Source: an uncultured bacterium
GTDB taxonomy: Bacteria; Hydrogenedentota; Hydrogenedentia; Hydrogenedentales; JAEUWI01
Direction: 5' to 3'
Length of the DNA: 33,060 nt
NCBI GenBank assembly: GCA_963977445.1
Contig: CAXBPH010000049.1
Coordinates: forward strand, 1-33,060
Within the stretch, counting starts at the first letter, position 1; the number at the start of each line of letters is the position of its first letter. Position numbers and translations under genes: made by a program. Below the pieces are notes generated by a model. The model saw only the letters and a list, made by a program, of their open reading frames with translations, was not told the DNA's origin and ran no database searches. Of the stretch, positions 8,086 through 28,819 are shown in pieces.

Positions 8086-8316
8086 ATGTATTTTTTGTAT
8101 GCCCCTCCTGATAACCAGTTTAGCACAACGCTACGGTGTTTTCGTGTTTTGAACTGATTGATCAAGAGTTATTTTGCTTTGAGTAGTTTTTCGATGCTTG
8201 CAGACCGCTGAATTTGGATATGCCTGCACGAAATCATCCATCCGTAGACGTGTTAACATGCATATTTACGCGAAAAAGACACGAGCTCAAGGTCGAGACG
8301 AATGCACTCATGGCGT

Positions 8317-8345
8317 TTGCCTTCCGTATAGTTGAATTGTATAAT
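8317..8345 (+). promoter_or_regulatory. Sigma70 promoter of the TetR-RND operon
   Basis: TTGCCT (8317-8322), 17-bp spacer, TATAAT (8340-8345). Confidence 0.75.
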
Positions 8346-8364
8346 TCAACTGGACGATTGAATT
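8330..8364 (+). promoter_or_regulatory. Operator palindromes overlapping the -10 box (probable TetR autoregulatory site)
   Basis: AGTTGAATT-GTAT-AATTCAACT (perfect 9-bp inverted repeat) plus overlapping AATTCAA-N8-TTGAATT. Confidence 0.7.
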
Positions 8365-8384
8365 TGGAGTGGGAGGGATTACGG

Positions 8385-9029
8385 TTGCGCAAAGACGGGG
8401 AATCAACACGAGGACGAATACTGGATGCGGCGCTGCAGCTTTTTGGTGAGAAAGGCTTCTATCACACCACCAATGCGGAAGTTTGTGAATCAGCCCAGGC
8501 CAATATTGCGGCCATCAATTATCACTTTCGCACGAAGGAACAACTCTACAAAGAAGTTTGCCAATACGCGATTGCATCCATCAACGAATTGTATCCGCCA
8601 GAGGGAATTGTCGAGCCTGCCATGTCACCGGAGGGGCGATTACGCGCCCACATTGCGTCGTTGATCATGCGATCACGTGTAACAGGTTCCTTGCGCTACT
8701 ACCACAACTTGCGGATGATGGAGACCTTCAATCCGACGGGGCTTGTCGATGAGATTTGGCAGGACTGGTTTCGTCAGCACACAGACGTCTCCATGAAAAT
8801 TATTCGTAAGCTGGTCGGGCCCGGGGCGCAGGAAGTGGATGTTGCCCGGTGCCAACTCAGTCTTGCGGGACAGTGTTACTTAGCGAATTCTATGTACATC
8901 TCTGGCAAATACGTCAAGGATGGAGGCAACCACCTGGACGACGAGCAGGCGGTAATTGATCATATATATATTTTTACCTGTGCTGGTATTCAGGCGGCAA
9001 TAGATAAAATTAAAGCAAGGACCCGTTAA
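8385..9029 (+). CDS. TetR-family regulator with CerR/DUF1956-type C-terminal domain
   Basis: 'TRGRILDAALQLFGEKGFYHTTNAEVCESAQANIAAINYHFRTKEQLY' TetR HTH; 'E..NPTG'; 'IDHIYIFTCAGI'. TTG 8385 follows SD GGAGGG and lies downstream of the promoter. Confidence 0.9.
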   Translation: MRKDGESTRGRILDAALQLFGEKGFYHTTNAEVCESAQANIAAINYHFRTKEQLYKEVCQYAIASINELYPPEGIVEPAMSPEGRLRAHIASLIMRSRVTGSLRYYHNLRMMETFNPTGLVDEIWQDWFRQHTDVSMKIIRKLVGPGAQEVDVARCQLSLAGQCYLANSMYISGKYVKDGGNHLDDEQAVIDHIYIFTCAGIQAAIDKIKARTR

Positions 9030-9031
9030 AT

Positions 9032-11924: not shown

Positions 11925-14900
11925 AGACGCCGGACCTGACCGGGCCGATTGCATGGATGGCACGGCATGGGGTGGCACCGAACATCCTGATGGCGGTGTT
12001 CATCATGGGTGGCCTCTTTATGACCACCAAGATCAAGCAGGAAGTCTTTCCGAATTTTGACCTCGATACCGTTACCATTGTTGTCCCTTTTCCGGGGGCA
12101 AGCCCGGAGGAAGTGGAAGAAGGCATCATCCTCGCTATTGAAGAGGAAGTGCGCTCGCTTGACGGGGTAGATGAAGTGCTCGCCGTCGCCTCTGAGGGCC
12201 GTGCGACGGTAACCGTCGAAATACTGCTTGGTGCCGACCCCCAGAAGATTAACCAGGATGTTCAGCAGGCTATTGCTCGAATTCGAGTCTTTCCAGAAGA
12301 CGCGGAAGAGCCCATAATCGCCTTGAGTGTGCGGCGACGCGCCGTTGTCGACTTGCAGATCTATGGTGATGTGGACGAGTGGTCCCTCCGTCAGGCGGCC
12401 GAGCAAGTACGTGATGGGCTGCTTCAACACCCAGATATTTCCCAGGTGGACCTCGAAGGGGTGCGAGATCTGGAAATACACATCGAGATTCCCCAGCACA
12501 CCCTCCGTCAATACGGAATGACACTGAGCGAGGTCGGGCAAATTGTGCGACAGTCTGCTTTCGACCGTTCTGGTGGTAAGGTTGAGACCAGCGCTGGTGA
12601 AATCCTGCTTCGCGTGCAGGAGCGCCGCGACTGGGCCCGGGAGTTCGAGAATATCCCTATTATTTCCTCGAGCGACGGTGCAATTGTACGCCTCGGCGAT
12701 ATTGCCACCATTCGCGAGGGCTTTGAAGACAGCGACACCTACGCAACTTTCGAAGGACAACGTGCCATCGCCATGACGGTCATCCGCGTGGGCGATCAGA
12801 CCCCCATTGGCGTGGCGGAGGGGGTGTACGAGTCCATGCCGCGTATATTGGCGGCATTGCCACCCGAAGTGAATTTTACGGTCGTGGATGACGATTCTGA
12901 GATATATCGTCAACGTCTGGAGTTGCTACTCAAGAATGGTTTGCTTGGCCTGGTGCTCGTCATGTTGACGCTCTCCATGATTCTCGAGTTTCGGCTGGCT
13001 TTCTGGGTGATGATGGGCATCCCGACATCCTTTATGGGTGCGTTGTTGTTTCTGCCCGGTTTGGATATCTCCATCAACATGGTGTCCATGTTTGCCTTCA
13101 TTCTGGCCTTGGGTATTGTCGTGGATGACGCTATCGTGGCGGGCGAAAATATCTACGAATATCGCCAGCGCGGCATGAGCCATATGGAGGCAGCCATACG
13201 GGGTGCCCAGGATATGGCCATTCCAATTTCCTATTCGATTCTCACCAACGTCGTTGCCTTTCTTCCGATTCTCTTCATTCCAGGGATTTTTGGAAAGATA
13301 TGGGCTGTGATTCCCCCCGTGGTAATTATTGCCTTTCTGATTTCCTGGGTCGAAGCCCTATTCATCCTTCCCGCGCACCTTGCCCATGTGAAAGAAGCGG
13401 GTACCCACGGTATTGGCGGAAAGCTGCATGGTATGCAGCAGATGGTGGCCAACGGTTTCACCGTTATCGCAAAACGACTTTATGGTCCCTTCATCGATAT
13501 CGCCGTACGCTGGCGTTATGCCACTATCGCGGTCATGATTGTGATCCTTGCGCTCGTTCTGGCGCTCCCCGGAAGTGGGCGAATGGGTTTTGTGCTCATG
13601 CCTCAAATTGAGAGTGAATATGCCCAGGCAACGGCCACGTTACCGGTCGGCGCTCCCCGTGAACATGTAGATGCTGTCGTTGACCGCCTGGTCGCCTCGG
13701 CACAAGCTGTTCTGGCCGAGAATGGCGGCGAAGCATTGGGTAAGGGGGTGTCGGCGTTGGTCAAGGAGAATGCCATTGAAGTGCGGGCCTATCTCGTGGA
13801 ATCGAGTCTGCGTGACCTCTCCACCGCTCAGGTAACCAACATGTGGCGTGAGCGACTGGGGGGTGAAATGCCTGGACTGGAAACCCTCCGGTTTGCCGCA
13901 GATGCCGGTGGGCCAGGACGGGGACCAAAAGTCTCTATTGAGCTTTCCCACCGGGACGTACCTACGCTGGAGCGTGCTGCGGAAGCCGTGGCGGATCGTC
14001 TGGAAGACTTTGCCGTCGTGAAAGACATTGACGACGGCTATACGCCCGGCAAAACCCAGCTCGATTTCCGCATTACTGACGAAGCAAAGTCTCTCGGGAT
14101 GGATGCCGACAGTATCGCTCGCGCCGTTCGATCGAGTTTCTTTGGCGTGGAAGCCATCCGACAGCAGCGTGGGCGCAACGAAATTACGGTACGCGTTCGA
14201 TTGCCAGAAGCAGAGCGAAACAGCGAATCTAGTCTGGAGAATCTTATCGTGGCCACGCCAGATGGTGGGGAAGTGCCCCTCTATCAGGTTGCCGATGTTA
14301 CGCGCGGTCGGGCCTACACCGATATAAATCGCCGTGATGGCCGCCGTGTTGTGACGGTGACGTCCAACGTGGATCCCGTCAGTGAGACAGGCAAAGTGCT
14401 GGCCGACATGAAGGATATCGTTCTGCCGGAAGTAATGCTGGACTTCCCGGGCCTGAGTTTTTCTTTTGAAGGACGGCAGGCCGATCAACGGGACTCGATG
14501 GTGGCCCTGCGCAATAACTACGTGATTGCACTGGTCATAATCTACGTCTTGCTCGCCATTCCTTTTCGGAGCTATATTCAACCCATTATTGTCATGACGG
14601 CTATTCCTTTCGCGGGGGTAGGCGCTATCCTGGGCCATCTTCTCATGGGCTTTAATCTCTCGGTGATTTCGGTAATGGGAATGATAGCCTTATCCGGCGT
14701 GGTAATTAATGACGCCCTGGTTATGGTCGACTACGCCAACAAACTACGACGGGAGGGATATTCGGCGGCCGAGGCCATCGAAAATGCCGGTATTCGTCGA
14801 TTCAGACCTATCTGGCTTACCACCATGACCACCTTTTGCGGCGTGGGTCCCATGATCTTTGAAACGTCCCGACAGGCCCGTTTTCTCATTCCCATGGCTC

Positions 14901-15079
14901 TATCCCTCGGGTTCGGGATAGTTTTTGCAACGGCGATTACGCTGGTGTTGGTGCCAGCGCTTTACATGGTCGTAGAAGATGCGACGAGTGCAATGCGCTT
15001 TTTCTTGCCGGGATCCCATTCAGATAGTGCTGAGGAGGTCAGCGAAGACGCCCCGGCATCGCCCACGTCTGCGCACTGA
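11921..15079 (+). CDS. RND efflux transporter permease (AcrB/AcrD/AcrF family)
   Basis: 1052 aa; 'PGASPEEVE', TM4 'GIVVDDAIV', 'RFRPIWLTT.TT', two large periplasmic loops. Confidence 0.95.
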   Translation: MKTPDLTGPIAWMARHGVAPNILMAVFIMGGLFMTTKIKQEVFPNFDLDTVTIVVPFPGASPEEVEEGIILAIEEEVRSLDGVDEVLAVASEGRATVTVEILLGADPQKINQDVQQAIARIRVFPEDAEEPIIALSVRRRAVVDLQIYGDVDEWSLRQAAEQVRDGLLQHPDISQVDLEGVRDLEIHIEIPQHTLRQYGMTLSEVGQIVRQSAFDRSGGKVETSAGEILLRVQERRDWAREFENIPIISSSDGAIVRLGDIATIREGFEDSDTYATFEGQRAIAMTVIRVGDQTPIGVAEGVYESMPRILAALPPEVNFTVVDDDSEIYRQRLELLLKNGLLGLVLVMLTLSMILEFRLAFWVMMGIPTSFMGALLFLPGLDISINMVSMFAFILALGIVVDDAIVAGENIYEYRQRGMSHMEAAIRGAQDMAIPISYSILTNVVAFLPILFIPGIFGKIWAVIPPVVIIAFLISWVEALFILPAHLAHVKEAGTHGIGGKLHGMQQMVANGFTVIAKRLYGPFIDIAVRWRYATIAVMIVILALVLALPGSGRMGFVLMPQIESEYAQATATLPVGAPREHVDAVVDRLVASAQAVLAENGGEALGKGVSALVKENAIEVRAYLVESSLRDLSTAQVTNMWRERLGGEMPGLETLRFAADAGGPGRGPKVSIELSHRDVPTLERAAEAVADRLEDFAVVKDIDDGYTPGKTQLDFRITDEAKSLGMDADSIARAVRSSFFGVEAIRQQRGRNEITVRVRLPEAERNSESSLENLIVATPDGGEVPLYQVADVTRGRAYTDINRRDGRRVVTVTSNVDPVSETGKVLADMKDIVLPEVMLDFPGLSFSFEGRQADQRDSMVALRNNYVIALVIIYVLLAIPFRSYIQPIIVMTAIPFAGVGAILGHLLMGFNLSVISVMGMIALSGVVINDALVMVDYANKLRREGYSAAEAIENAGIRRFRPIWLTTMTTFCGVGPMIFETSRQARFLIPMALSLGFGIVFATAITLVLVPALYMVVEDATSAMRFFLPGSHSDSAEEVSEDAPASPTSAH

Positions 15080-15364: not shown

Positions 15365-16933
15365 TTGCGGCACGATGAATTTAAGTATGACATTGTGATT
15401 TATGGCGGCACTCCGGCTGGGATTGCCGCCGCCGTAGCCGCGGCGCGCATGGGCCGCTCGGTCGCACTTATTGATACCCATGGGCATTTTGGTGGCATGG
15501 CGGCGAGTGGGCTCGGGAAGAGTGACGTAGAAAATCCCCAATATATTGGCGGGCTCTTTTCCACGTTTACGGCGGGGGTTCGCGCTTACTATGACAGGCG
15601 ATTTGGCTCGGGCTCCAAGGAATCGCAGAGGTGTAAAGACGGTTTCTACTATGAGCCCCATGTGGCCGAGCTTGTATTCGAGGGTATGCTCGCCGAACAC
15701 CCCGGCATAGTGCCCTTCAAGCGCCATCGACTGACGGGGGTGACGGTGGAGACGGGACAACTCAAGGCCATTGCGCTCCTCGATATGGATGGGGATCGCA
15801 CGGTTACGCTGGACGGCAAGGTGTTTCTCGACGCAGGCTACGAAGGCGATCTCTACGCGAAGGCGGGCGCAGGCTTTCGACTGGGGCGGGAAAGTCGCGA
15901 CGTTTTTGAGGAAAGTCTTGCGGGGCATATCTACTATGATTTTGACAATGGCGTTGCCCTGCCGGAGAGTACGGGCGTTGGGGATGACGGGCTACCCGCA
16001 TGGACCTACCGACTATTTCTCTCCACCGACCCCTTTGACAGTGTTTCTATTACGTCACCGCCCGACGACTATGATCGGAAATTGTTCACGCCCTATTTCG
16101 AAGATCTCGAAGCAGGCAGGCTGGGCGGCCCCAAGGTGTTTTACGAAGGCAGAGGCTACTATCCCGCCCATTTCAATACCATGGTTCGGGCCCTCTCTGT
16201 CACACGGATGCCCAATGGAAAAGCCGACGTAAATATTAATCCCCGGCCCCTCGCCTTTCCCTTTCCCGAAGAAAATGCGGGTTATGTGGAAGGGGACTGG
16301 GATACGCGTATGGCCATCGAAAAACGCCATCGGGATTTGTGTCTCGGCCTCCTCTGGTTTCTGCAAAATGACGACGAAGTGCCTGTAGCGGACAGGAACG
16401 TGGCGCGCGAATACCAATTGCCCTGCGATGAGTTTATCGACAATGGCAATTTCCCGTGGCAACTCTACGTGCGTGAAGCCCGAAGGCTCGAAGGTTGTTA
16501 CACGATTACGCAGCACGATGTGTCCGTGGGGGAGGGCGTGCCCCGGGAATTCCAACATGACGACGTTATCGCCATGGGGGAGTTTCCCATAGACAGTTTT
16601 CCCGTGCACAAGCGGCAGCCCGGCGATACAATTGTATTGGAGGGGTATCTTGGCATGTTGGGCCACTTGACCCGGCCCTACAAGATTCCCTACCGCGCCA
16701 TGCTGCCCAAAGAGATTGATGGCCTGATTGTTCCCGGTGCCCTTTCCGCCTCCCACGTCGCCTACTCCTCGATTCGCATGGAGCCGACCTGGATGGCCCT
16801 GGGCCACGCCGCTGGCATCGCTGCTCACCTCGCTATACAGCATGAATGCCCCCCCCGAGCCGTTCCGGTAGAAACGTTGCGAGAAATGCTCCGCGCGCAG
16901 GGGCAGGTGGTAGATCCTCCGTCGAAGTGTTGA
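15365..16933 (+). CDS. FAD-dependent oxidoreductase (FAD_oxidored family)
   Basis: 'DIVIYGGTPAGIAAAVAAAR.G', 'GGM...GL', 'FLDAGYEGDL...AG', 'YVREARR', 'PYKIPYRAM', 'SIRMEPTWMALG'. TTG start after AAGGA. Confidence 0.88.
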   Translation: MRHDEFKYDIVIYGGTPAGIAAAVAAARMGRSVALIDTHGHFGGMAASGLGKSDVENPQYIGGLFSTFTAGVRAYYDRRFGSGSKESQRCKDGFYYEPHVAELVFEGMLAEHPGIVPFKRHRLTGVTVETGQLKAIALLDMDGDRTVTLDGKVFLDAGYEGDLYAKAGAGFRLGRESRDVFEESLAGHIYYDFDNGVALPESTGVGDDGLPAWTYRLFLSTDPFDSVSITSPPDDYDRKLFTPYFEDLEAGRLGGPKVFYEGRGYYPAHFNTMVRALSVTRMPNGKADVNINPRPLAFPFPEENAGYVEGDWDTRMAIEKRHRDLCLGLLWFLQNDDEVPVADRNVAREYQLPCDEFIDNGNFPWQLYVREARRLEGCYTITQHDVSVGEGVPREFQHDDVIAMGEFPIDSFPVHKRQPGDTIVLEGYLGMLGHLTRPYKIPYRAMLPKEIDGLIVPGALSASHVAYSSIRMEPTWMALGHAAGIAAHLAIQHECPPRAVPVETLREMLRAQGQVVDPPSKC

Positions 16934-17188
16934 AGGTTTCGCTCACAGATTTTTCGGAACTTTGTGGCGAGCAGATAATTTAGGCGTTCTGCAGATAGTT
17001 CAATTGTTTTCCATCTCGGTGACTGCTATAGTTTTCTGAGGTCGCAAGGCCCGTGGGATTCTGGTTTTGTCTCGCACGGAAGTGCGCCGGGTTCTACAGA
17101 AATTTTTGATGTGTTTGTGCATGTAGATTGCTGCCCCGTTGCAGGGCTGCGTGTGGCAAACCAAAACAATCTAACGGGAGAGTGGCAT

Positions 17189-18646
17189 ATGTATCGGTAT
17201 TTCACCAAGGGGTTCATAGCCATTGCAATGATATTGGCTGCGGCCGGTTCGGCGCAGGCACAGGGGCCCATCGGCAATGATCAGTATGCCTTTAAGGTAT
17301 ATGCCGTTGATGTAGGCTTCTACCCGATTATTCAGGTCTATTTTCGGACCTGGGACCAGAATCGGGACCCCCTGCAGAATGTAAACTATGCGAATATCGG
17401 GTTGATGGTGAAAGGCCGTAACTACGAGCCCACTATCTTTGATCCTCAGACCCGTCAGACCCAATATACTATCGAGACCCTGCAAAACCGCCAAGAAGGC
17501 TTTCGTACCGTATTGGTCCTCGATTGTAGTCTCTCCATGGCCGGAAAGCCCTTTGCCGACGCCCAGAACGCCCTCATTCGCTATGTGGAGGCCAAACGAC
17601 CGACGGACCAGATTGGGATAATCGCGATACGGGATGAGGCAGAAGGTTTTCAGCTGGTTTCCGGCTTTGAAAAAGACCCCACCTTGCTCTATCAGCGCAT
17701 TTCGGATATCAAGTGTGATGGCAAGAGCACCCGGCTCTACGACGCCATCGCGGGTGCTATCGAAATGAGCGCTTCTGCTTCCCAGGGGGGAACCAGCAAT
17801 GCGAGCAACGAACGGGCCGTATTGAATTCTATCGTGGTCTTTTCCGATGGGCACGACGAAGGCAGCGCGGTGGCCCGTGATGAGCTGATGAATCGTATTG
17901 GACAGATGCCTGTTCCGGTGCCAATTTTTTCACTGGCCTATTCAAAATCCAACACGGAACACTTCCGAAATCTGGAAGCGCTGTCCAAAGGTAGTTTTGG
18001 TCGCTATTGGACCCACACCGATTCTCAGGAGTTGTCCGCCACGGTTCAGAAAATTCATCAGATCAATCGCTCTGACTATGTCGTCAGCTTTCGCTCCTAC
18101 GTGGAGGTGGATGGCGGTAAGCACCCCTTCAAGATCGGCCTGAGCTACCCCTCCAACTCGGGACGTTTCATCTGGGAAGATGGTGTGTTCGAGGCCATCG
18201 ACTCGCCCGCGCAGCATATCCCAGAGACCCGTGATCAGTATATGTACGCTCAGTCGATGATTCCTGTCCTGCCAAATGGATGTCCTTATGTAGGCTGCGA
18301 GGCCCAAACGACGGCAATGCCCGCGCCCGCTCCGGTCCCCGCACCGGCACCGGCACCGCCTGTGGCGGCACCCGTAGCGCCCGAAGCCTTGAGTGTGGAA
18401 CCGGCTCCTGCGGCCAAAGCGAGTGACCAGTCGTCGGATGAGGGTGAGGAGGCGGAGCCCAAGTCATTCCTCGATGAGAACGGTGCACTGCTTGGGCTGG
18501 GTGCCGGTATTCTGGCCCTGTTGATTGCCATATTGAGCTGGGTTCGCGGTGGTGGTGGTCCTAAGGGTGGTGGGGGAACCTCGACGGGTTCCCGGAATTC
18601 AGCGCCTCGTCTGGGTTCTTCCTACGACGTGGATACCCAACTGTAG
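17189..18646 (+). CDS. Exported, C-terminally membrane-anchored von Willebrand factor A (vWA) domain protein
   Basis: SD GGAG then ATG 17189; signal peptide ending 'AQA'; MIDAS 'LDCSLSM' with T ('STRLYDAI') and D ('FSDG'); Pro/Ala linker; TM 'LLGLGAGILALLIAILSWV'; short Gly/Ser/Thr tail. Confidence 0.88.
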   Translation: MYRYFTKGFIAIAMILAAAGSAQAQGPIGNDQYAFKVYAVDVGFYPIIQVYFRTWDQNRDPLQNVNYANIGLMVKGRNYEPTIFDPQTRQTQYTIETLQNRQEGFRTVLVLDCSLSMAGKPFADAQNALIRYVEAKRPTDQIGIIAIRDEAEGFQLVSGFEKDPTLLYQRISDIKCDGKSTRLYDAIAGAIEMSASASQGGTSNASNERAVLNSIVVFSDGHDEGSAVARDELMNRIGQMPVPVPIFSLAYSKSNTEHFRNLEALSKGSFGRYWTHTDSQELSATVQKIHQINRSDYVVSFRSYVEVDGGKHPFKIGLSYPSNSGRFIWEDGVFEAIDSPAQHIPETRDQYMYAQSMIPVLPNGCPYVGCEAQTTAMPAPAPVPAPAPAPPVAAPVAPEALSVEPAPAAKASDQSSDEGEEAEPKSFLDENGALLGLGAGILALLIAILSWVRGGGGPKGGGGTSTGSRNSAPRLGSSYDVDTQL

Positions 18647-18655
18647 CGTTTTGAG

Positions 18656-18690
18656 AAGGGGGGAGGCACCAGCCTCCCCCTTTGGTTTAT
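18656..18690 (+). terminator. Intergenic GC-rich hairpin (terminator/attenuator) between the vWA and FHA-ABC genes
   Basis: AAGGGGGGAGGC-ACCA-GCCTCCCCCTTT followed by GGTTTAT. Confidence 0.6.
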
Positions 18691-18715
18691 GAAGCAGTTA
18701 TTCTAGTGGGGACTT

Positions 18716-21226
18716 ATGTCAAAGCGAACGGCTGTAGGCTATCTGGAAGCAACGGATCCCCTTCTGTTGCAGCCGCACTATCCGATTTTTGAAGGCGGGG
18801 TTAAACTCGGCCGTGATTCGGACCACTGCGAAATTATCTTGTCCCGCGAGTTTGTCTCACGTCGACATTGTGCACTGCGGACAGAAGGGGACGCGGTCGT
18901 CATCGAAGACCTGGAAACCACCAATGGCACCTTCGTCAACGGCAAGGAAATACGGCAGCAACGACTCAATCCCGGCGACCGAATTGGCCTGGGCAAGGCG
19001 TCACCCCATCACTTTGTCTACACCCTCAGCAACGAGACGCCCACCCGAAAATATGCATTGCCGTCTCAAAAGGTCTATCGGATTGGCCGCACCCAAGATT
19101 GCGACCTGCCCTTAATTCATGACCCTACGGTTTCAGCCCAGCACGCCCGACTACTGGTTCGTGCCAATAAGCTGACCATTGAAGACATGGGAAGCGCGAG
19201 TGGCACCTTCGTCAATGGCCAGATGATTCGGGTTGCCCAGATTACGGCCAGTGATCAGGTGCGTATCGGCACCACCGAGCTTGTCTTTCAGCAGACGGCC
19301 GAAGGTATGCGGGTTTCCGCCCAGACCCGGCAAAACCAGATCCGTCTGGAGGCCCAGAATCTGGTTCGCACCCACGGAAAACACCAGCTCTTACGGAATA
19401 TTGACCTCGTAATTGAGCCCGGGGAGTATGTAGGTGTCCTGGGGCCCAGTGGTGCCGGCAAATCGACCTTGCTGAATGCCCTGAACGGATTTCAGCCCGC
19501 GACTGGCGGTCAGGTACTGGTTAATGGAACCAATCTTTACAGTTCCTATGATATGTACCGTAATTCCATCGGTTACGTGCCACAGGACGATATCATCCAC
19601 CGGGAATTGTCGGTGGAGCGCTCCTTGGCCTACACGGCCCAGTTGCGCCTGCCCCGGGATACGACTTCGGAACAACTGGAAGCGCAGGTCACCAGTGTCA
19701 TCGAGACCTTGGGGCTGAGCCACGTCCGTCAGAGTCCCGTGCTCAACCTCTCCGGTGGTCAACGTAAACGGGTATCCATAGGTTGTGAGCTGCTGACGAA
19801 GCCGAGTCTTATCTTTCTCGATGAGCCCACGTCCGGACTTGACCCGAGCACCGAAGAAAAACTGATGCGCCACTTCCGGCAAATGTCGGAGCAGGGGCAA
19901 TCGGTCGTACTGACCACGCATATTCTATATAACCTCGATCTCCTCGATATGGTGATTCTTCTTTCCCGAGGACGACTCGTCTATTTTGGTCCCACCTCAG
20001 AGGTCTGCAATTTCTTCGATTCCACATCCAATCGGGTGCAACGGCCTATCGATATCTTTGACCTCCTGGAACCTGAGTCCCCCGATTCTGCCTTGCGGGA
20101 AGAGCGTGCGGAACACTATGCCCGACTCTACAAGGGCTCCCGGTTGCACAAGGAATATATAACGGGCCGCTCGTCCCAGCCCCAAAAACTGGACGACGGT
20201 ATCCGGCTCAACCCGAAAGAGACGGTACCGTCGGGGAACGAACCCCGTGCGAAGGGCGCGAGTATTCGCCGCCGTACCCGTGGGTTTATGGAACGGGCCC
20301 TCAATATCGGGCAATTCATGGTCCTTACCCGCAGGACGCTCGATCAGAAGTTCGCGTTTCCACGTCGTCTGGCTATCCCGCTATTGACGCCCCTGGTGCT
20401 CGCTATTCTGACGGCCACGCTGGAGTTGGGTAATCAAAGTGCCCTGACCCAGGAGCAGGCGGATTTCGAAGCGACGAATCCGCAGTTTCTGGCCATGCTG
20501 GATCAGCCCGATATGCCCGTGAACCGTGAAGCATTCATCGGCATGCGCTTTCAGGGATTTGGCGGCCTCGCTATACCGTTGGCCTTGCCCCTGACGATGA
20601 TTATGACGGCCGTCTTCCTGGGAACCTTATCTTCCTGCTTGGAAATATCCGGGGAACGCTCCATATATCTTCGGGAACGAGCCGTAAATCTGGGTATTGT
20701 GAGCTATCTGGCGAGTAAATTGCCGGCCCTGTTCCTCCTCTCTGTGGTACAATCATTCGTGTATGTTGCCTTCGTAATGGGTATATTGCAGCCGCCAGGT
20801 GTCGATGTCCTTGGGATCGTGCTTATCTGCATTGGCGTGGCGTGGGTTTCGTGTATTATCGGTCTGTTCATTTCCAGTCTGGACCCCACACCGGGGCAGA
20901 ACTCGGTTATGCTGGCGGTAATCGCCATGTTGCCTCAGATGATATTTTCTGGTGCCATGGCTCCCGCGTTCTTCGATGGGATGCATCCTATTACGCAGGG
21001 TATCGCTGCCATGTTACCTGCCCGTTGGGGTTTTGAGCTCTTGCTCACCGTGCTCTACCAGGATCCGCCCTGGGCGCGGGATCTCATCACCGCGGGAAGT
21101 CCCGCCGGGATGGGTTTCGGCTTTGGCAAAGATGTCCTTTGGGTAAATGGCGTGGCGTTGCTGACCTTGGCGGTGGCGTATTTTGGTGCGACTTGTGTTA
21201 GTTTGCGCCGATTTGACAAACTCTAG
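18716..21226 (+). CDS. FHA-FHA-ABC transporter (ATPase plus ABC2/ABCG-type permease fusion), Rv1747-like
   Basis: FHA1 'LGR...SRRH...TNGTFVNG'; FHA2 'IGR...SAQH...SGTFVNG'; Walker A 'GPSGAGKS'; signature 'LSGGQ'; Walker B 'IFLDEP'; H-loop 'TTH'; C-terminal multi-TM permease with 'ER.IY.RE'. Confidence 0.93.
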   Translation: MSKRTAVGYLEATDPLLLQPHYPIFEGGVKLGRDSDHCEIILSREFVSRRHCALRTEGDAVVIEDLETTNGTFVNGKEIRQQRLNPGDRIGLGKASPHHFVYTLSNETPTRKYALPSQKVYRIGRTQDCDLPLIHDPTVSAQHARLLVRANKLTIEDMGSASGTFVNGQMIRVAQITASDQVRIGTTELVFQQTAEGMRVSAQTRQNQIRLEAQNLVRTHGKHQLLRNIDLVIEPGEYVGVLGPSGAGKSTLLNALNGFQPATGGQVLVNGTNLYSSYDMYRNSIGYVPQDDIIHRELSVERSLAYTAQLRLPRDTTSEQLEAQVTSVIETLGLSHVRQSPVLNLSGGQRKRVSIGCELLTKPSLIFLDEPTSGLDPSTEEKLMRHFRQMSEQGQSVVLTTHILYNLDLLDMVILLSRGRLVYFGPTSEVCNFFDSTSNRVQRPIDIFDLLEPESPDSALREERAEHYARLYKGSRLHKEYITGRSSQPQKLDDGIRLNPKETVPSGNEPRAKGASIRRRTRGFMERALNIGQFMVLTRRTLDQKFAFPRRLAIPLLTPLVLAILTATLELGNQSALTQEQADFEATNPQFLAMLDQPDMPVNREAFIGMRFQGFGGLAIPLALPLTMIMTAVFLGTLSSCLEISGERSIYLRERAVNLGIVSYLASKLPALFLLSVVQSFVYVAFVMGILQPPGVDVLGIVLICIGVAWVSCIIGLFISSLDPTPGQNSVMLAVIAMLPQMIFSGAMAPAFFDGMHPITQGIAAMLPARWGFELLLTVLYQDPPWARDLITAGSPAGMGFGFGKDVLWVNGVALLTLAVAYFGATCVSLRRFDKL

Positions 21227-21311
21227 GTACTATCCGCCGTACAGCGGATCAATTTAATAGCAGGGCGCGTTGCCGAGGGTATTCAATGCGGCACGTGTTG
21301 AGGGTAACATT

Positions 21312-23021
21312 GTGGACCAAATGAATATTGCTGACGAGCTCATTGCCGGCCGCTACCAGGTGACCAAACATCTGGGAGAGGGGGCCATGGGTAGTGTCTA
21401 TCTGGCCGCCGACACCCAGTTGAATCGGCAGGTCGCCCTCAAAGTGCTTCGTGGAGAGTGGGTGAGTCGTCCCGACGTGGCCAAGCGCCTCGAAATGGAA
21501 TGCCAGCTCATGGCCCAGTTGGGGCCCCACAACAATATCGTTACCCTCTTCGACCGTGTAAATCACGGTGACAGCGTTGTCATGGTTATCGAATACGTTC
21601 CCGGTGAGAATATCGCTGACGTGTTGGACCGGGCACGTGCCATGAATGAGGAAAAAGAATCCGCCCGACGGACGACTCCGGTGCTGGCTGGTGTTTCGAC
21701 CATTGCCATGACGCCCACCGACGCCATCGATATTACACTTCAATGTTTGAGCGGTTTGGATTTTGCCCACAGCCGTGGAGTCATCCACCGCGATATCAAG
21801 CCGGCCAATATCATGGTTTCTCATGATCACAACGGTAGTATTCTCGCGAAGATTACCGATTTCGGTATTGGTAAGGCGATTGCGGGCATCGATGGCGATA
21901 CCAGCCCGGAGATGACGGCACTCACCCGTGCGGGGGGGCCGGGTCCTGGTACACCCGCCTACATGGCTCCCGAGCAGATTGACCAGAGTCGCTTTGGACT
22001 CGTCGGTCCTGCCTCTGATCTCTATGCCCTGGGTGTGACGCTCTACGAGATGCTCTCCCTGGGTTTACCCTTTCATGGGACCTATACCGAATTACTCCAC
22101 CTCCATACCAATGTCGATCCGCCCGATTTGCGGAAGTTAATTCCCGGCTTGAGCCCGGCGTTGGCGGCGGTGGTTAAGAAGAGTCTGGCCAAGGAGCAAA
22201 AGGATCGCTATGAGTCGGCCCACCGGTTCAGAATGGAACTTGCTGCTGCGGCCAAAGATCCCATACCCGCCTGGTCCGCACGAGGTGGTGGCGGCGGCCG
22301 ATCGTCCGTGCCCCTTATTTTTGGCGCCGTAGCCGCAGTGGCGTTATCCGTGGGGGGCTATCTCTATCTGTCCGGTCAAAAGTCGGCAGAGAAGACTTCG
22401 CCTCCGGTGGAAAAGGCGATTGTATCCAATGAAACGGTCCCGCCCCCGGCACAGCCAACGCAGGAGCCTGCTGGTACCGGTCTGCCTTCGGCAACCGTGC
22501 CGGATGCCGTGGTGGCCCAACCGGTGACAGCGACGCCGACCGATGGTGTGGCACCACCTGCACCTATGCCCGTTGCAGAACCAACACCGCCGCCACCATC
22601 AGGAGCTGCGCTGCAGGCGGCGAAGAACTCGGCCCAGAGTTCCCAGCAGGAGGCGATGAGCCAGTATGGCGGGAAAGACCCGTCCCAGGATACGAATTAC
22701 ACCCAGGGTCAAACCTGGCTGGCGAAAGCCAACGAGGCGGAGACCTCGGGCGACGTCGATTCGGCACGGAGTTACTTGCTCCAGGCGAAACAGAGCTTTG
22801 ATGCCGTGAAAGCACCGGCACCGACGCCCCCCCCAGCACCCAAGGTGACTGCGGCACCGGCACCCAAAGTGACGGCACCGAAGCCAGTAGTGCCAAAAGC
22901 GGTACCTGCCAGTCAGAAACCGGATCCCATCCCCGTGAAGCCACCGGAAACACCGGCCGCGAAACCAGCGAACGGCGGCTTTTCTACGGGCGAATCGGTG
23001 GTGACACACAAACCCAAATAA
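21312..23021 (+). CDS. Transmembrane Hanks-type Ser/Thr protein kinase
   Basis: 'LGEGAMGSVY', 'VALK', 'HRDIKPAN', 'DFG', 'GTPAYMAPE', 'SDLYALG'; TM 'LIFGAVAAVALSVGGYLYL'; Pro-rich C-terminal region. Start is GTG 21312 (after GAGGG) or ATG 21321. Confidence 0.95.
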   Translation: MDQMNIADELIAGRYQVTKHLGEGAMGSVYLAADTQLNRQVALKVLRGEWVSRPDVAKRLEMECQLMAQLGPHNNIVTLFDRVNHGDSVVMVIEYVPGENIADVLDRARAMNEEKESARRTTPVLAGVSTIAMTPTDAIDITLQCLSGLDFAHSRGVIHRDIKPANIMVSHDHNGSILAKITDFGIGKAIAGIDGDTSPEMTALTRAGGPGPGTPAYMAPEQIDQSRFGLVGPASDLYALGVTLYEMLSLGLPFHGTYTELLHLHTNVDPPDLRKLIPGLSPALAAVVKKSLAKEQKDRYESAHRFRMELAAAAKDPIPAWSARGGGGGRSSVPLIFGAVAAVALSVGGYLYLSGQKSAEKTSPPVEKAIVSNETVPPPAQPTQEPAGTGLPSATVPDAVVAQPVTATPTDGVAPPAPMPVAEPTPPPPSGAALQAAKNSAQSSQQEAMSQYGGKDPSQDTNYTQGQTWLAKANEAETSGDVDSARSYLLQAKQSFDAVKAPAPTPPPAPKVTAAPAPKVTAPKPVVPKAVPASQKPDPIPVKPPETPAAKPANGGFSTGESVVTHKPK

Positions 23022-23081
23022 GCAACAGCCACGTGTGCTGAGAAATACAATGGTAAAAACCACAAAGACAAGGATATTACA

Positions 23082-23738
23082 ATGAAAACGAAAACTATCA
23101 GTAGTTTGTTAATCGTGGCCGTGCTGGTTCCCGGCCTGCTTACGGGTTGTGAGACCACGGGTCAATCCACCGGGCTTGGCGCGGTTATCGGCGGCGCGGC
23201 GGGATACGCCATTGGCGGCAATAAAGGTGCCTTGATAGGCGCAGCCGTTGGCGGCGTTGCTGGCTTCGCGATTCACAAGGCGAAAGAGCGGAAGATTAAG
23301 ACAGCCCAGGAAACAGCGACGGAATACAAGTATGATCCCAGCGAGGGATTGAAAGTTGACCTCCGTCCGGCTACTTCGGCGTCCCCAAGCACCGTGCCCC
23401 AGGGCTCCACGTCCAATGCGGAGCTCGAATACTACGTTCTCGGTGCCGGTGATGCCGGTACCGCAGTACACGAGAAGCAGCTCATCCTGAAAGATGGCAC
23501 CGAGCTCGTTACCCTTCGCGACGAACCCGTTACCCGGGTAGACGGCACCTGGAACGTTTCTACGCCCATCGAGGTAAACACTTCCGTTGAGCCGGGACAG
23601 TATGATCTCGTCCAGACCATCTCCGTGGCCGGTAACAACCTGTCCACCCGCACGCCCCTGACGGTTACGACCAAGACTGCCAAGGCACCCAGCCAGATGA
23701 TCTATGGCGAGACCGAGATTCTGGTGGCTTCCCGTTAA
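23082..23738 (+). CDS. Glycine-zipper lipoprotein with a C-terminal beta-rich domain
   Basis: SD AAGGA; lipobox 'LLTGC'; glycine zipper 'GLGAVIGGAAGYAIGGNKGALIGAAVGGVAG'. Confidence 0.85.
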   Translation: MKTKTISSLLIVAVLVPGLLTGCETTGQSTGLGAVIGGAAGYAIGGNKGALIGAAVGGVAGFAIHKAKERKIKTAQETATEYKYDPSEGLKVDLRPATSASPSTVPQGSTSNAELEYYVLGAGDAGTAVHEKQLILKDGTELVTLRDEPVTRVDGTWNVSTPIEVNTSVEPGQYDLVQTISVAGNNLSTRTPLTVTTKTAKAPSQMIYGETEILVASR

Positions 23739-23770
23739 GCCCACCTACTCAGGTAGTGAATAATTTATAT

Positions 23771-23813
23771 AGCCGCCGGAAGTACTTCGGGTACTTTCGG
23801 CGGCTTTCTGTTT
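23771..23813 (+). terminator. Rho-independent terminator ending the vWA-FHA/ABC-kinase-lipoprotein cluster
   Basis: 15-bp stem AGCCGCCGGAAGTAC / GTACTTTCGGCGGCT (one G-U pair) with a TTCGG loop, followed by TTCTGTTT. Confidence 0.85.
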
Positions 23814-23918
23814 GTGTTCGGTCAATTTCCTCTCGGGGCGGTGTCCGCCCGACCTTGAACCGATGTGCGGGCCTTGTTAGAGTGAGTCTTGTTTTTCCGA
23901 GAGAAAGGTATTTACCAA

Positions 23919-25124
23919 ATGACAGCAGAATCAATGGGTTCCCTCCTTCGGACAGGGTTGGTACTGGGGCTACTCGGTACGTTGAGCATTCCCGCAGCAC
24001 ACGGTGCAGAGGACTACCCCGATCCCAAGACAAACCCGACGTCATCGCTCATGTTGCAGGGCTCCTGGGTGCCGGAAGAAACCCATGATATTGATTTCGG
24101 AACGCTCCCCCGTATTCCCTCGAAGCTTGCGGTCATCAACGATGCACGGCCCTACGACGGTGTTAACCAACACAACTATCTCGCCTTCTACGATGGCAAG
24201 TATTGGGCCATGTGGAGTGATGGCCCCGCCGTAGAAGACATGGCCGGACAGCGGGTGCGCTACGCCACCAGCGAGGATGGACTGACCTGGACGGCCCCAG
24301 AGTTTCTGACGCCTATTCCGCCCAACTCCGGTCCCGATTCACCGGTTTACAATACACGGTCTCCCGAAGGTTTTCGGTGGATTTCCCGTGGACTGTGGGA
24401 GCGCGATGGGGAACTGCTGGCCCTGGCCTCCCTCGATGAATCGGCCGGTTTTTTCGGGCCAAGTCTCGCCCTTCACGCCTTCCGCTTCAACAAAGATACG
24501 CAGGCCTGGGACGATCTCGGGGTGGTCTCTGACAACACCATCAATAATTTCGCACCCAAGAAGATTGCGACGGGGGAGTGGATGATGACCCGCCGCACCT
24601 TCGACCGCAATGTGTCCTTCCTCGTGGGCGGCGTGGATTCTATCAACGCCTGGGAATCATTCCCCGTGGTCTTTTATGGCGACAAGACCTTGAAAGCAGA
24701 AGAACCCTATTGGTGGGAACTGCCCGACGGCAATCTTCTGGCACTTTTTCGCGACAACAACAAGAGTGGCTATTTATTTCGCTCCTTTTCCACCGACAAC
24801 GGCCGCACCTGGAATCCGCCGGTGAAGACCAATTTTCCCGACGCCACTTCGAAATTTAATGGCCTCCGCATGAGTGATGGGCGCTATGTGCTGGTAAGCA
24901 ACGCCAACCACGAGAAGCGAGATCCCCTGGTTCTTTCTATCAGCGATGATGGTATTGTTTTCAACAAGATGGGCTATCTCACCGGTGGTCGATGGATAGA
25001 CTACCCCCACGTTATTGAGCACGACGGACATCTCCTCGTTGCATTCGCCGGTTGGCGGAAACAGACCTGCGAAGTCCTGAAGATTCGTATCGCCGATTTG
25101 AGCGTATTGGATGTACAGAAATAG
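23919..25124 (+). CDS. Secreted BNR-repeat (sialidase-like beta-propeller) protein
   Basis: Signal peptide ending 'AHG'; 'RIP' motif; Asp-boxes 'TSEDGLTW', 'STDNGRTW', 'SISDDGIVF'; C-terminal 'YP'. Confidence 0.8.
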   Translation: MTAESMGSLLRTGLVLGLLGTLSIPAAHGAEDYPDPKTNPTSSLMLQGSWVPEETHDIDFGTLPRIPSKLAVINDARPYDGVNQHNYLAFYDGKYWAMWSDGPAVEDMAGQRVRYATSEDGLTWTAPEFLTPIPPNSGPDSPVYNTRSPEGFRWISRGLWERDGELLALASLDESAGFFGPSLALHAFRFNKDTQAWDDLGVVSDNTINNFAPKKIATGEWMMTRRTFDRNVSFLVGGVDSINAWESFPVVFYGDKTLKAEEPYWWELPDGNLLALFRDNNKSGYLFRSFSTDNGRTWNPPVKTNFPDATSKFNGLRMSDGRYVLVSNANHEKRDPLVLSISDDGIVFNKMGYLTGGRWIDYPHVIEHDGHLLVAFAGWRKQTCEVLKIRIADLSVLDVQK

Positions 25125-26861: not shown

Positions 26862-27767
26862 ATGGCGCCCTCCGCCGTCTCCGAAAAATATACTGTTGGT
26901 CTGCTGCAATTGCAGGTGACGCCTGACCCCGTCGAAAATACCCGCAAGGCCCTCGATTGGTTTGAGAAAGCCGCTGCCCAGGGGGCCCAGGTGGTGTGTC
27001 TGCCCGAACTCTACAAGAGCCAGTACTTCTGCCAGAAGGAAGACGTGGACCTCTTTGATTTGGCCGAGCCTATCCCGAACGAGAGTATCGAGGCATTCCA
27101 GGCTGCGGCGGCCCGCTTGAAGGCGGCGGTGGTCGTACCTGTATTCGAACGACGGGGCCCCGGTGTCTATCACAACAGCCTGGTCTGCATTGATGCCGAC
27201 GGCAGCCTCGTCGGTATCTATCGCAAAATGCACATCCCCGATGACCCGGCCTACTACGAGAAGTTCTACTTCGCTCCCGGTGATTTGGGCTTTAAGAATT
27301 TCGACACCCGTTATGGCCGTATTGGGACCCTCATCTGCTGGGACCAGTGGTACCCCGAGGGTGCCCGACTCACCGCGCTCCGTGGTGCGTCTATACTTTT
27401 CTACCCCACGGCCATCGGCTGGCACCCCTATGAAAAAGAAGAATATGGTGCCGCACAACGGGATGCCTGGATGACTGTCCAGCGTGGTCACGCCATCTCC
27501 AATGGCATCTACGTGGGAGCCGCCAATCGGGTTGGCTTCGAGCAGCCCGTACCCGAGCAAGCCGGCATTGAGTTCTGGGGCTCTTCCTTTATTGCCGATC
27601 CCCAGGGCGTCATCATCGCCGAGGCCAGCACGGATAAGGAAGAGGTCCTTCTGGCCGAAGTGGACCTGGTCCACATGGAAAACATTCGCCGCAATTGGCC
27701 CTTTTTACGGGATCGGCGCATTGACGCCTATGGCGATATAACCCGCCGATTCATCGACGAAGGATAA
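26862..27767 (+). CDS. aguB: N-carbamoylputrescine amidohydrolase (carbon-nitrogen hydrolase family)
   Basis: Triad Glu 'LPEL', Lys 'YRKMHIPDDP.YYEKFYF', Cys 'ICWDQWYPE'; C-terminal 'WPFLRDRR'; adjacent to agmatine deiminase. Confidence 0.9.
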   Translation: MAPSAVSEKYTVGLLQLQVTPDPVENTRKALDWFEKAAAQGAQVVCLPELYKSQYFCQKEDVDLFDLAEPIPNESIEAFQAAAARLKAAVVVPVFERRGPGVYHNSLVCIDADGSLVGIYRKMHIPDDPAYYEKFYFAPGDLGFKNFDTRYGRIGTLICWDQWYPEGARLTALRGASILFYPTAIGWHPYEKEEYGAAQRDAWMTVQRGHAISNGIYVGAANRVGFEQPVPEQAGIEFWGSSFIADPQGVIIAEASTDKEEVLLAEVDLVHMENIRRNWPFLRDRRIDAYGDITRRFIDEG

Positions 27768-27772
27768 GGCCC

Positions 27773-28819
27773 ATGCCGTCAACGCTGCGCATGCCTGCCG
27801 AATGGGAAGGCCATGAATGCACCCTCCTGGCCTGGCCCACAAATAAAGACGATTGGCCCGGTAAATTTCGACCCATCCCCTGGGTGTTTTGCGAGATGAT
27901 TCGGCACCTGAGCGTGGGGGAGCGGGTCGATCTTATCGTCCCCAGCGGCTGTATCGAGGAAAAGGTGCGCCGAAATCTGGTCAAGGCCCGTGCCAACCTG
28001 GACAACATTCACTTTATTCACCAAACCCTCGATCGGGGATGGATGCGGGATTGCAGTCCGGCTTTCGTGCGCCGTGGTGATGCAGTAGAGGCCGTTCACT
28101 TTGGATTTAACGGCTGGGCAAAATACGACAACTACCAGTTGGACGCCACCGTGCCCGAGCGACTTTCGGAGTCCTTGGGACTCGGTCGGGTCGAAGCCCT
28201 CCATAGGGGGCGTCATATTGTTCTGGAAGGCGGTGCCCTCGACGGCAATGGTGGGGGAACCCTCCTCACGACGGAAGAGTGCCTGCTCCACCCGGAAACG
28301 CAGATCCGAAATCCCGATTTCACCCGCGAAGACTACGAGGTGCTCTTTCGTCAGTATCTTGGCATCGAAAAGGTCATCTGGCTGGGGGACGGTATTGCGG
28401 GCGATGATACCCATGGTCATGTCGACGATCTGTGTCGGTTTGTCAATCCCAACACGGTCGTGTTATGTGGGGAATCCGACGTCAACGATGACAACTACCG
28501 TGCTCTCGCGGAGAACAGGGAACGCCTTCAGGGCGCGACCACGGCCCGTGGTGAATCGATTGATGTCGTTGCGTTGCCTATGCCCGCGCCCCTGTATTTC
28601 GACGACACCCGTCTGCCGGCGAGCTACGCCAATTTCTATATTGGCGACGAAGCCGTGCTTGTTCCGACGTTTAACGATGTCAAGGACCGACTTGCACTCG
28701 GTACACTGGCCGAGCTGTTTCCAGACCGACGGGTCGTAGGGATTCATGCCGTTGATCTGGTCTGGGGTTTTGGCACCGTTCATTGTCTCAGCCACGAAGT
28801 GCCCCGCCTGAACGCATGA
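27773..28819 (+). CDS. aguA: Agmatine deiminase (PAD_porph family)
   Basis: 'RMPAEWE.H', 'WMRD', 'FNGW', 'LEGGALD.NG', 'DDTHGHVDD', 'SYANFY', catalytic 'GTVHC'. Confidence 0.93.
   Translation: MPSTLRMPAEWEGHECTLLAWPTNKDDWPGKFRPIPWVFCEMIRHLSVGERVDLIVPSGCIEEKVRRNLVKARANLDNIHFIHQTLDRGWMRDCSPAFVRRGDAVEAVHFGFNGWAKYDNYQLDATVPERLSESLGLGRVEALHRGRHIVLEGGALDGNGGGTLLTTEECLLHPETQIRNPDFTREDYEVLFRQYLGIEKVIWLGDGIAGDDTHGHVDDLCRFVNPNTVVLCGESDVNDDNYRALAENRERLQGATTARGESIDVVALPMPAPLYFDDTRLPASYANFYIGDEAVLVPTFNDVKDRLALGTLAELFPDRRVVGIHAVDLVWGFGTVHCLSHEVPRLNA

Follow-up and report, generated by a model that had tools for sequence, protein, structure and literature searches.

What does a bacterium gain by encoding, side by side, a Ser/Thr kinase, a transporter equipped to read phospho-threonine (pThr), an exported metal-binding protein and a lipoprotein? 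The question is raised by a four-gene cassette in a 33,060-nucleotide (nt) stretch of DNA from an uncultured bacterium of the Hydrogenedentota (GenBank contig CAXBPH010000049.1, positions 1 to 33,060), analysed at its full length and referred to below as the window. The window is contig C49 of a genome (G000) of 7.1 Mb in 464 contigs, estimated as 94% complete, and its closest relatives are metagenome-assembled genomes (MAGs) labelled Candidatus Hydrogenedentota. On the plus strand, the cassette leads from a gene for a von Willebrand factor A (vWA) protein to one for an ATP-binding cassette (ABC) exporter with two forkhead-associated (FHA) domains, then to a Hanks-type kinase gene and finally to a lipoprotein gene followed by a closing hairpin. 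We interpret it, with a little better than even confidence, as a phospho-threonine-gated ABC exporter module of the cell envelope. Its parts are as follows (aa, amino acids; AF2, AlphaFold2).

16934..17188, no strand: presumed promoter region, the 255 nt of intergenic DNA upstream of the vWA gene, read from the sequence
17189..18646, plus strand: exported, membrane-anchored vWA protein, 485 aa from ATG (Pfam VWA_2/VWA, AF2 model, Foldseek)
18716..21226, plus strand: FHA-FHA-ABC exporter, 836 aa (Pfam FHA twice, ABC_tran, ABC2_membrane)
21321..23021, plus strand: membrane Hanks Ser/Thr kinase, 566 aa from ATG (Pfam Pkinase, motifs, composition, alignment of 10 kinases)
23082..23738, plus strand: glycine-zipper lipoprotein, 218 aa (Pfam, alignment of 14 sequences, AF2 model)
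23771..23805, plus strand: intrinsic-terminator-like hairpin at the cassette end (16-pair stem with 9 G-C pairs, 3-nt loop, T-rich tail)

An earlier reading made from the letters alone (the sequence-only reading) had proposed these four genes, their domains and the terminator, and Pfam, the translations and a hairpin scan all agree with it. The genes are separated by 69, 94 and 60 nt, the second gap shrinking to 43 nt if the kinase starts at the alternative TTG at 21270. A GTG at 17111 is likewise open to the vWA gene, where we prefer the ATG at 17189 because the signal peptide comes immediately after it. The hairpin is the strongest among 14 terminator-like sites in 16500-24500; upstream, no sigma-70-like site was detected within 16934..17188, by a scan that does not cover the promoter types of the Hydrogenedentota phylum. 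The cassette is single-copy in its genome, and none of its four proteins exceeds a curated NCBIfam cut-off.

Conservation and distribution of the gene set

Whether the four genes belong together can be judged from 17 distinct loci (the window, L002-L009, L011, L012 and L014-L019; L013 and L020 are duplicates of L003 and L004). The vWA gene lies immediately 5' of the FHA-ABC gene in 16 of them, the exception being L019, where it stands beside a 1516-aa protein combining a Ser/Thr protein kinase with WD40 repeats (STPK-WD40) and the ABC gene is absent. Directly 3' of the ABC gene, a Hanks kinase gene is found in 11 of the 13 testable loci, three further loci ending at a contig edge; the kinase of L017 is an upstream STPK-WD40 protein, and no kinase adjoins the pair in L018. 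Of the 12 loci whose downstream sequence is long enough, 8 have a lipoprotein homologue; its place after the kinase gene is taken by an IS200 transposase in L012 and a sulfatase in L015, and a PP2C phosphatase gene joins the cassette in a single locus of the 17 (L009), right after the lipoprotein-like gene. The constant core is therefore the vWA and FHA-ABC pair, usually together with the kinase, and the lipoprotein is the least constant part.

Carriers comprise Hydrogenedentota, three Desulfobulbaceae/Thermodesulfobacteriota MAGs and one MAG labelled Clostridiales, and homologues of the vWA protein also bear source names from Chromatiaceae and other Pseudomonadota. With the exception of the closest relative, flanking genes vary between lineages while the cassette is kept. 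Recurrence of this order in several phyla makes the arrangement more than a chance one, in agreement with the proposal of the sequence-only reading that the set is a conserved, self-contained unit found in synteny elsewhere.

Within the phylum, we surveyed an even sample of 121 Hydrogenedentota genomes, counting FHA-ABC genes at E <= 1e-60. The vWA gene occurs in 21 and the FHA-ABC gene in 23: 20 genomes hold both, one the vWA gene only, three the ABC gene only and 97 neither. Two of the three ABC-only genomes have that gene at the start of a contig, while the third has no more than a paralogue of 34% identity. Of the 20 genomes bearing both, 17 have the two genes adjacent on one contig, and three genomes of the window's own genus lack the two together. 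Among 201 sampled genomes of the phylum to which the Desulfobulbaceae carrier belongs, the vWA gene (E <= 1e-50) was found in one, the carrier itself. Synteny and co-occurrence counts thus describe a unit that is real, accessory and patchily distributed.

Several loci carry additional genes or variants of these parts. Giant STPK-WD40 beta-propeller kinases adjoin the cassette vWA gene in two Hydrogenedentota genomes (1516 aa at L019:5773-11735 and 1192 aa at L017:4410-7988), and in L018 (G094:C3:98000-117000) an FHA-ABC protein of 1048 aa, in which a large insertion separates the nucleotide-binding domain (NBD) from the membrane domain, is preceded by two vWA paralogues in tandem. Up to four conserved same-strand genes, encoding proteins of about 190, 198, 112 and 420-470 aa, precede the cassette in the Desulfobacterota and in the 'Clostridiales' MAG (L009:328-3321, L007:3284-6232, L008:16-1269, L006:700-2599); even at E 0.1, Pfam recognises none of their products, the window's genome encodes no homologue of them, and these cassettes may represent a larger version of the system. 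Finally, the vWA gene of one Hydrogenedentota family always has directly upstream of it a gene whose product (about 880 aa) contains a PPDK_N domain, of the ATP-binding kind found in pyruvate phosphate dikinase (L004:3588-6212, L005:5-2656, L015:9904-12582), which could reflect lineage synteny or an added part.

The exporter, its kinase and the two forms of the vWA protein

The following features within the first three genes bear on how the parts might communicate (TM, transmembrane).

18488..18643, plus strand: TM helix of the vWA protein (residues 434-452; Kyte-Doolittle mean 2.46) and its 33-residue Gly/Ser/Thr-rich tail ending ...SSYDVDTQL
18800-18994, plus strand: FHA-1 (Pfam)
19076-19270, plus strand: FHA-2 (Pfam)
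about 19391-19834, plus strand: NBD (Pfam ABC_tran)
about 20312-21223, plus strand: ABC-2-type membrane domain (Pfam ABC2_membrane)
21354-22217, plus strand: kinase domain (Pfam)
21660-21692, plus strand: clade-specific kinase insert SARRTTPVLAG (alignment of 10 cassette kinases)
22308-22370, plus strand: kinase TM helix, residues 330-350 (motif and composition reading)
22371-23018, plus strand: outer part of the kinase, Pro/Ala-rich with one helical hairpin (composition)

Pfam recovers two FHA domains (1.5e-36), ABC_tran and ABC2_membrane in the exporter, whose Walker A, signature motif, Walker B and H-loop are all intact. Both FHA domains keep the pattern G-R...S-x-x-H, that is, the Arg, Ser and His of the pThr pocket, and FHA-2 matches GarA, FhaA and the FHA domain of Mycobacterium tuberculosis Rv1747 (6cah, E 7.8e-7). 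The linker between them measures about 10-15 residues and holds no conserved Thr among eight aligned family members; it is too short for acceptor sites of the Rv1747 type, so that the FHA domains must dock elsewhere, either on another chain or at another place in the protein. The closest sequence relatives of the NBD are ABCA and ABCG/PDR transporters, and the best NCBIfam model is the ABCG-type TIGR00955, with a score below its cut-off. From this ABCA/ABCG-like NBD and the ABC-2 membrane domain, our guess is that the exported substrate might be a lipid or glycolipid.

The vWA protein (Pfam VWA_2 4e-12, VWA 9e-8) belongs to a family of 223 homologues with 45-48% identity and E of about 1e-98 between phyla. 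Its N-terminus, MYRYFTKGFIAIAMILAAAGSAQA/QG, reads as a Sec signal peptide with a predicted cleavage site at the slash, and is followed by an N-terminal beta-sandwich, the vWA domain, a C-terminal beta unit, a Pro/acidic linker, a TM helix and a cytoplasmic tail. The DxSxS...T...D metal-ion-dependent adhesion site (MIDAS) is present, and in an alignment of 43 homologues D112, S114 and D220 are invariant, T181 is kept in at least 90% and S116 is the majority residue; the same alignment (n=43) reveals an invariant N-terminal block comprising Y45, P46, Y51, R53, P61, L62, N64, N69, G76 and Y79. An AF2 model (mean pLDDT 81, pTM 0.69) features the N-terminal beta-sandwich, the vWA fold and the small C-terminal beta unit. 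Foldseek relates it to ArnB, its best match (8s05, 1.6e-12), ITIH1, a Catenulispora vWA protein (4fx5) and BatB, at low TM-scores (0.3-0.4; 0.33 by query and 0.42 by target for ArnB), so that the likeness, including that to ArnB, is essentially the shared vWA fold. A protein atlas places the protein in generic vWA clusters, with one structural neighbour cluster fusing FHA and vWA domains (Myxococcota, TM-score 0.70), and a search of weak power at E <= 0.001 returned no longer fused forms (850-2425 aa, such as kinase-vWA).

The C-terminal anchor distinguishes two forms of the family. The common one is soluble, of about 380 aa, with 25 of the 43 aligned members having no anchor. In the other 18, a Pro/acidic linker leads into a TM helix (hydropathy at least 2.4) and a cytoplasmic tail of 24-55 residues, and the window's protein with its helix at 434-452 is of this kind; the exported vWA protein with intact MIDAS and C-terminal anchor that had been read from the letters is borne out. 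Anchored tails contain 12.5% Thr against 4.1% in the ectodomains and are otherwise poorly conserved in sequence. Even so, T-x(1,2)-[LIFVM] occurs within the last 16 residues of 15 of the 18 tails (for instance DVDTQL, SPTEF, DTTSRL and DTKTRLI), compared with 3.7 +/- 1.7 in composition-preserving shuffles, none of 2000 of which reaches 15. The Thr-bearing tail is a candidate FHA docking site, as judged from sequence.

The kinases differ along the same division. In the window, the kinase domain (Pkinase 4e-45) retains K41, HRD, DFG and APE, and the 216-residue outer part beyond its TM helix consists of 19% Pro and 16% Ala with no Pfam domain, in line with the variable Pro-rich stalks with short helical hairpins that form the outer parts of cassette kinases. 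At all five loci with an anchored vWA protein (the window, L002, L003, L011 and L012), the kinase domain contains an insert of about 20 residues and the juxtamembrane segment is short; SR+TTPV is found in the insert of four of the five, the window reading SARRTTPVLAG. At all five loci with a soluble vWA protein (L005, L006, L009, L015 and L016), the insert is absent and a juxtamembrane segment of 40-50 residues carries [KRS]-T-[LV]-x-A. The first outer loop of the ABC protein is also about 14 residues longer in the soluble-vWA group. We read this clade pattern as a possible shift of the FHA docking site, which may have moved as the vWA protein acquired its anchor.

Two candidate MIDAS ligands were considered and dropped: a tethered C-terminal peptide of the extracellular part of the kinase, which is not conserved across 11 kinases, and an Asp conserved among eight sequences in the ABC protein's first outer loop. 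A complex prediction with two ABC membrane domains and the vWA ectodomain scored 0.00 and 0.00 where the mark was 0.32, and weighs neither way.

The lipoprotein combines a lipobox (L-L-T-G-C23) with a glycine zipper (residues about 25-70) and an Ig-like beta-sandwich (about 88-199). The glycine-zipper Pfam families PF13441, PF13488 and PF13436 score above their cut-offs, and the L005 orthologue also matches PF05433. The protein evolves fast, with just 11 matches in a large protein database, and its Desulfobulbaceae orthologue keeps the sandwich without the zipper. In the AF2 model the sandwich has pLDDT >90 and the zipper low confidence. Fold searches (Foldseek against the PDB, and a wide VIA-align search) return only generic Ig-like sandwiches at Z of about 10 with many tied rows. 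By sequence, the SlyB chain 7ojf reaches E 0.1 only, and the NCBIfam model YiaD_Gzip_OmpA scores 27.9 bits against a cut-off of 175. A paralogue of 225 aa, 31% identical in the sandwich, is encoded elsewhere in the genome (L022, G000:C170:10561-14818), between a 678-aa DUF4129 protein and a neutral-ceramidase-like protein.

Mechanism and competing explanations

How might these parts work together? In the exporter reading introduced above, the output would be a homodimeric ABC-2/ABCG-type exporter whose tightly joined N-terminal FHA pair reads phospho-threonine, and the adjoining single-pass Hanks kinase would supply the marks. Outside the cytoplasm, the exported vWA protein would bind a partner on the outer face through its MIDAS and N-terminal beta-sandwich, be it a ligand, the outer loops of the pump or both, with the lipoprotein acting as a frequent, dispensable accessory. 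FHA docking, in trans, would then switch the pump or bring about its clustering. Where the vWA protein of relatives is soluble, the conserved Thr motif of the kinase juxtamembrane segment is the likely docking site; in the window's clade, where that motif is gone, the candidates are the Thr-Thr-Pro insert of the kinase and the Thr-bearing tail of the vWA protein. The sequences themselves show which domains are present, that their motifs are intact, how the genes are ordered and co-occur, that the set is independent of T6SS genes, and how anchor, tail and insert go together in the clade; phosphorylation partners, signalling direction, export by the pump and its cargo are what we infer from this arrangement. 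A more specific form of the model, which we put forward tentatively and would expect to fail considerably more often than to hold, makes the anchored vWA protein a single-pass receptor whose short cytoplasmic tail would relay inward the binding of a ligand at its periplasmic MIDAS: the kinase would phosphorylate a C-terminal motif of the D-x-[DP]-T-x-[LF] type, the tandem FHA domains would read it, and binding outside the cell would directly gate or cluster the pump, the docking site having moved from the juxtamembrane segment of the kinase to tail and insert. If this is true, it would constitute a bacterial relay from receptor through kinase and pThr reader to transporter, of a kind not described so far.

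A number of observations weigh against these proposals. The kinase is constant neither in type nor in position, being a giant upstream STPK-WD40 protein in L017 and L019 and adjoining the pair not at all in L018, and with at least 38 Pkinase and at least 17 FHA matches in the genome, other kinases could serve the pump. FHA-2 of the window reads SASGT where relatives have S-x-N-G-T, so that Ser replaces the Asn of N-G-T. No lipoprotein gene accompanies the kinase gene in L012, L015 or L011, the last of which is a complete genome from the window's genus. The clade pattern reflects a single evolutionary split and hence may express shared ancestry instead of co-adaptation; the tail sequences are mutually related, so the shuffle test overstates significance, and Ser/Thr/Gly-rich tails are common in disordered segments generally. 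Co-transcription is deduced solely from the gaps of 43-94 nt and the single terminator, a search of sequencing runs having returned no RNA run and one DNA run with a 0.15 share of the sampled words, and the neighbouring genes offer no clue to the pump's substrate.

Some of the same facts suit a flow of information in the opposite sense, in which the FHA-ABC and vWA proteins are the sensor and recruit or activate the kinase through the FHA domains, the kinase phosphorylates other targets, and export is secondary or absent. Bce-type ABC transporters act in such a way, as sensors for their histidine kinases. Here the vWA protein is linked most strictly with FHA-ABC (16 of 17 loci, 20 of 21 genomes), the kinase differing in type and place among loci; an acceptor linker in cis is missing from the FHA domains, and the many kinases and FHA proteins of the genome could form a network. 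Nonetheless, we consider this reversal unlikely, given that conservation extends to every ATPase motif and to a full ABC-2 membrane domain, as expected of a working transporter, and that phosphorylation activates the transporter in the one studied relative, as described in PMC3138270; nothing here separates it cleanly from the exporter reading. Quite unlikely, in our estimation, is a role in surface display or adhesion, with the vWA protein an adhesin or matrix binder held by its anchor or by the lipoprotein and the pump exporting the bound polymer or lipid. A Sec signal with an intact MIDAS is indeed what extracellular adhesion proteins have, ITIH1, collagen VI, integrin I-domains and pilus adhesins are among its Foldseek neighbours, and Ig-like sandwiches like that of the lipoprotein are seen in carbohydrate-active enzymes as well as the biofilm scaffold RbmA (Z 10.3, tied with many unrelated rows). 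These fold matches are, however, generic vWA and Ig-like ones at TM-scores of 0.3-0.4 and carry no functional weight, no conserved glycan-synthesis genes lie beside the cassette, and the vWA protein is soluble and unanchored in most lineages (25 of 43 aligned).

The most tempting alternative, a type VI secretion system (T6SS) sensor resembling the Pseudomonas aeruginosa TagQRST-PpkA-Fha1 threonine-phosphorylation pathway, is scarcely credible once distribution is taken into account. The sequence-only reading had noted that no T6SS gene is present in the 33 kb, which is true of the window and does not extend to the genome, where contig C26 (L010, G000:C26:21000-40988) encodes TssC (cut by the contig end), Hcp, TssE, TssF, TssG, VgrG, TssK, TssL, a Big_12 protein, a TssM-like protein of 1754 aa in which only the IcmF-related N domain is recognised, and, between VgrG and TssK, two open reading frames (180 and 235 aa) without a Pfam match. 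The visible part of this T6SS locus contains no FHA, kinase or PP2C gene of its own, which speaks for action in trans, as does the match of the part classes with those of the P. aeruginosa pathway as described in PMC13713981. Against this, TssC is limited to 9 of the 121 Hydrogenedentota genomes, all of one genus, in which three TssC-bearing genomes have no cassette; no TssC match is seen in 15 of the 21 genomes bearing the vWA gene; in a complete genome of the genus, about 0.94 Mb separate TssC from the cassette; TssC was found in 0 of 4 carriers from other lineages, the completeness of those genomes not being given; and the FHA domains, instead of forming a free scaffold, are part of the ABC protein itself. 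The cassette is thus independent of the T6SS by distribution and not embedded in T6SS loci, as the sequence-only reading had supposed, and with synteny in other genomes established as well, both sequence-level tests of its self-contained nature have turned out in its favour. The further suggestion made there, a sensor of contact or envelope damage, is speculative. A conflict or anti-phage system of the kinase/vWA type is likewise very unlikely. The patchy distribution speaks for it (21 of 121 Hydrogenedentota, 1 of 201 genomes sampled from the Desulfobulbaceae carrier's phylum), PADLOC models match both the kinase and the ABC ATPase, and vWA-containing conflict systems are described in PMC7159879; but the PADLOC matches are to generic kinase and ATPase domains, the vWA protein and the lipoprotein match 0 models and, being exported, are unfit for cytoplasmic sensing of invaders, and Pfam identifies no nuclease or other effector-type domain.

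The neighbourhood of the cassette is functionally unrelated on both sides. Upstream lie genes for a TetR regulator, an OEP, a HlyD-type protein, an AcrB efflux set and an FAD oxidoreductase, and within this region 8214-15079 forms a complete tripartite efflux operon of the resistance-nodulation-division (RND) type, with a TetR/CecR-type regulator followed by OEP, HlyD-type and AcrB genes; these RND/OEP genes indicate a diderm envelope. Downstream there are genes for a BNR-repeat protein and a sodium:solute symporter, as well as for an agmatine deiminase and a C-N hydrolase. The last two adjoin each other at 26862-28819 (N-carbamoylputrescine-amidase-like C-N hydrolase; agmatine deiminase, PAD_porph, 5.5e-106) and likely are a putrescine-synthesis pair, upstream of which the BNR_2 sialidase-like protein and the symporter are encoded. 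The genome as a whole is very rich in eukaryote-like signalling parts, as its Pkinase and FHA counts attest.

Comparison with known systems

What is known of FHA-tagged ABC exporters comes essentially from a single studied example, Rv1747 with its kinase PknF from M. tuberculosis, where the signal, the substrate and the mode of action of phosphorylation are still debated. Rv1747 is not known to have a vWA partner or a lipoprotein. It is the closest known system, and the comparison with it made in the sequence-only reading holds at the level of architecture: both proteins join a pair of N-terminal FHA domains to an ABC ATPase and a membrane domain of the ABC-2 type, as the 6cah match also reflects, and a Hanks kinase gene adjoins that of the exporter, here on the same strand at a gap of 43-94 nt. 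PknF is described as phosphorylating Rv1747 and regulating it positively, with Thr-150 and Thr-208 as the phosphorylated residues and both FHA domains binding those epitopes (PMC3138270), in a region characterised as non-structured (PMC8339232). The cassette, in contrast, has no such long phospho-acceptor linker, its gene order is reversed, with the kinase downstream, and its organism is diderm as judged from the RND/OEP genes. Moreover, an exported vWA protein is an almost obligatory partner and a lipoprotein a frequent one.

The T6SS comparison, from which the sequence-only reading had derived the same parts list, comes down to a resemblance of domain classes, with neither homology nor linkage behind it. 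In PpkA the outer domain has a vWA fold on the periplasmic side, and TagS is of another permease type than ABC-2. The cassette membrane domain, in contrast to TagS, is of the ABC-2 type, and the vWA protein is separate from the kinase, which has no folded outer sensor domain (no Pfam match, a single hairpin); a fused kinase-vWA form was also absent from the search mentioned above, which is weak evidence. The H1-T6SS pathway of P. aeruginosa, in which TagQ/TagR/TagS/TagT, PpkA, PppA and Fha1 are described as effecting threonine phosphorylation, shares with the cassette a lipoprotein, an ABC-like inner-membrane ATPase complex and an FHA reader, as well as a single-pass Hanks kinase with, in PpkA, a disordered stretch and a folded outer domain (PMC13713981). 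Beyond being unlinked to T6SS genes both physically and by distribution, the cassette differs in having FHA domains fused to the ABC protein in place of the free scaffold Fha1, and in the absence from the window of a TagR-like FGE-domain protein and of a PP2C gene corresponding to PppA, the nearest PP2C homologues being on contigs C209 and C101. Nor is the TagQ-like part proposed for the lipoprotein supported, only a generic glycine zipper and Ig-like sandwich being found. Outer-membrane lipoproteins of the SlyB/Pcp, YmgG and YiaD types do resemble it in having a lipobox followed by a glycine-zipper segment; relative to the SlyB/YiaD type, sequence similarity is weak and the C-terminal sandwich is a generic Ig-like one. 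The analysis removes a tempting but wrong link to T6SS regulation.

Sets in which a vWA protein is encoded together with an FHA reader and a Ser/Thr kinase are described for ArnA/ArnB of Sulfolobus (PMC6509490) and for the DRA0331-DRA0334 operon of Deinococcus radiodurans (bioRxiv 10.64898/2026.01.23.701218). They differ from the cassette in having no ABC exporter. Their vWA proteins ArnB and DRA0331 are also cytoplasmic. As the cassette vWA protein has a signal peptide and lies outside the cytoplasm, its globular part cannot bind FHA domains.

Full-text literature searches, judged from titles and abstract openings, returned no description of a cassette of vWA, FHA-ABC and kinase, with or without the lipoprotein. 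In diderms of several phyla, the pump-plus-kinase scheme known from Rv1747/PknF comes with an almost obligatory exported vWA/MIDAS protein, and this protein is a likely key to whatever the system detects or handles outside the cell. The anchored clade further offers short peptide motifs in the vWA tail, the kinase insert and the juxtamembrane segment, turning the question of which phospho-site the FHA domains read into a direct binding experiment. New here are the counts on co-occurrence, the explicit dismissal of a link to the T6SS, and the anchored form of the putative receptor, with its Thr-bearing tail and the matching changes in the kinase.

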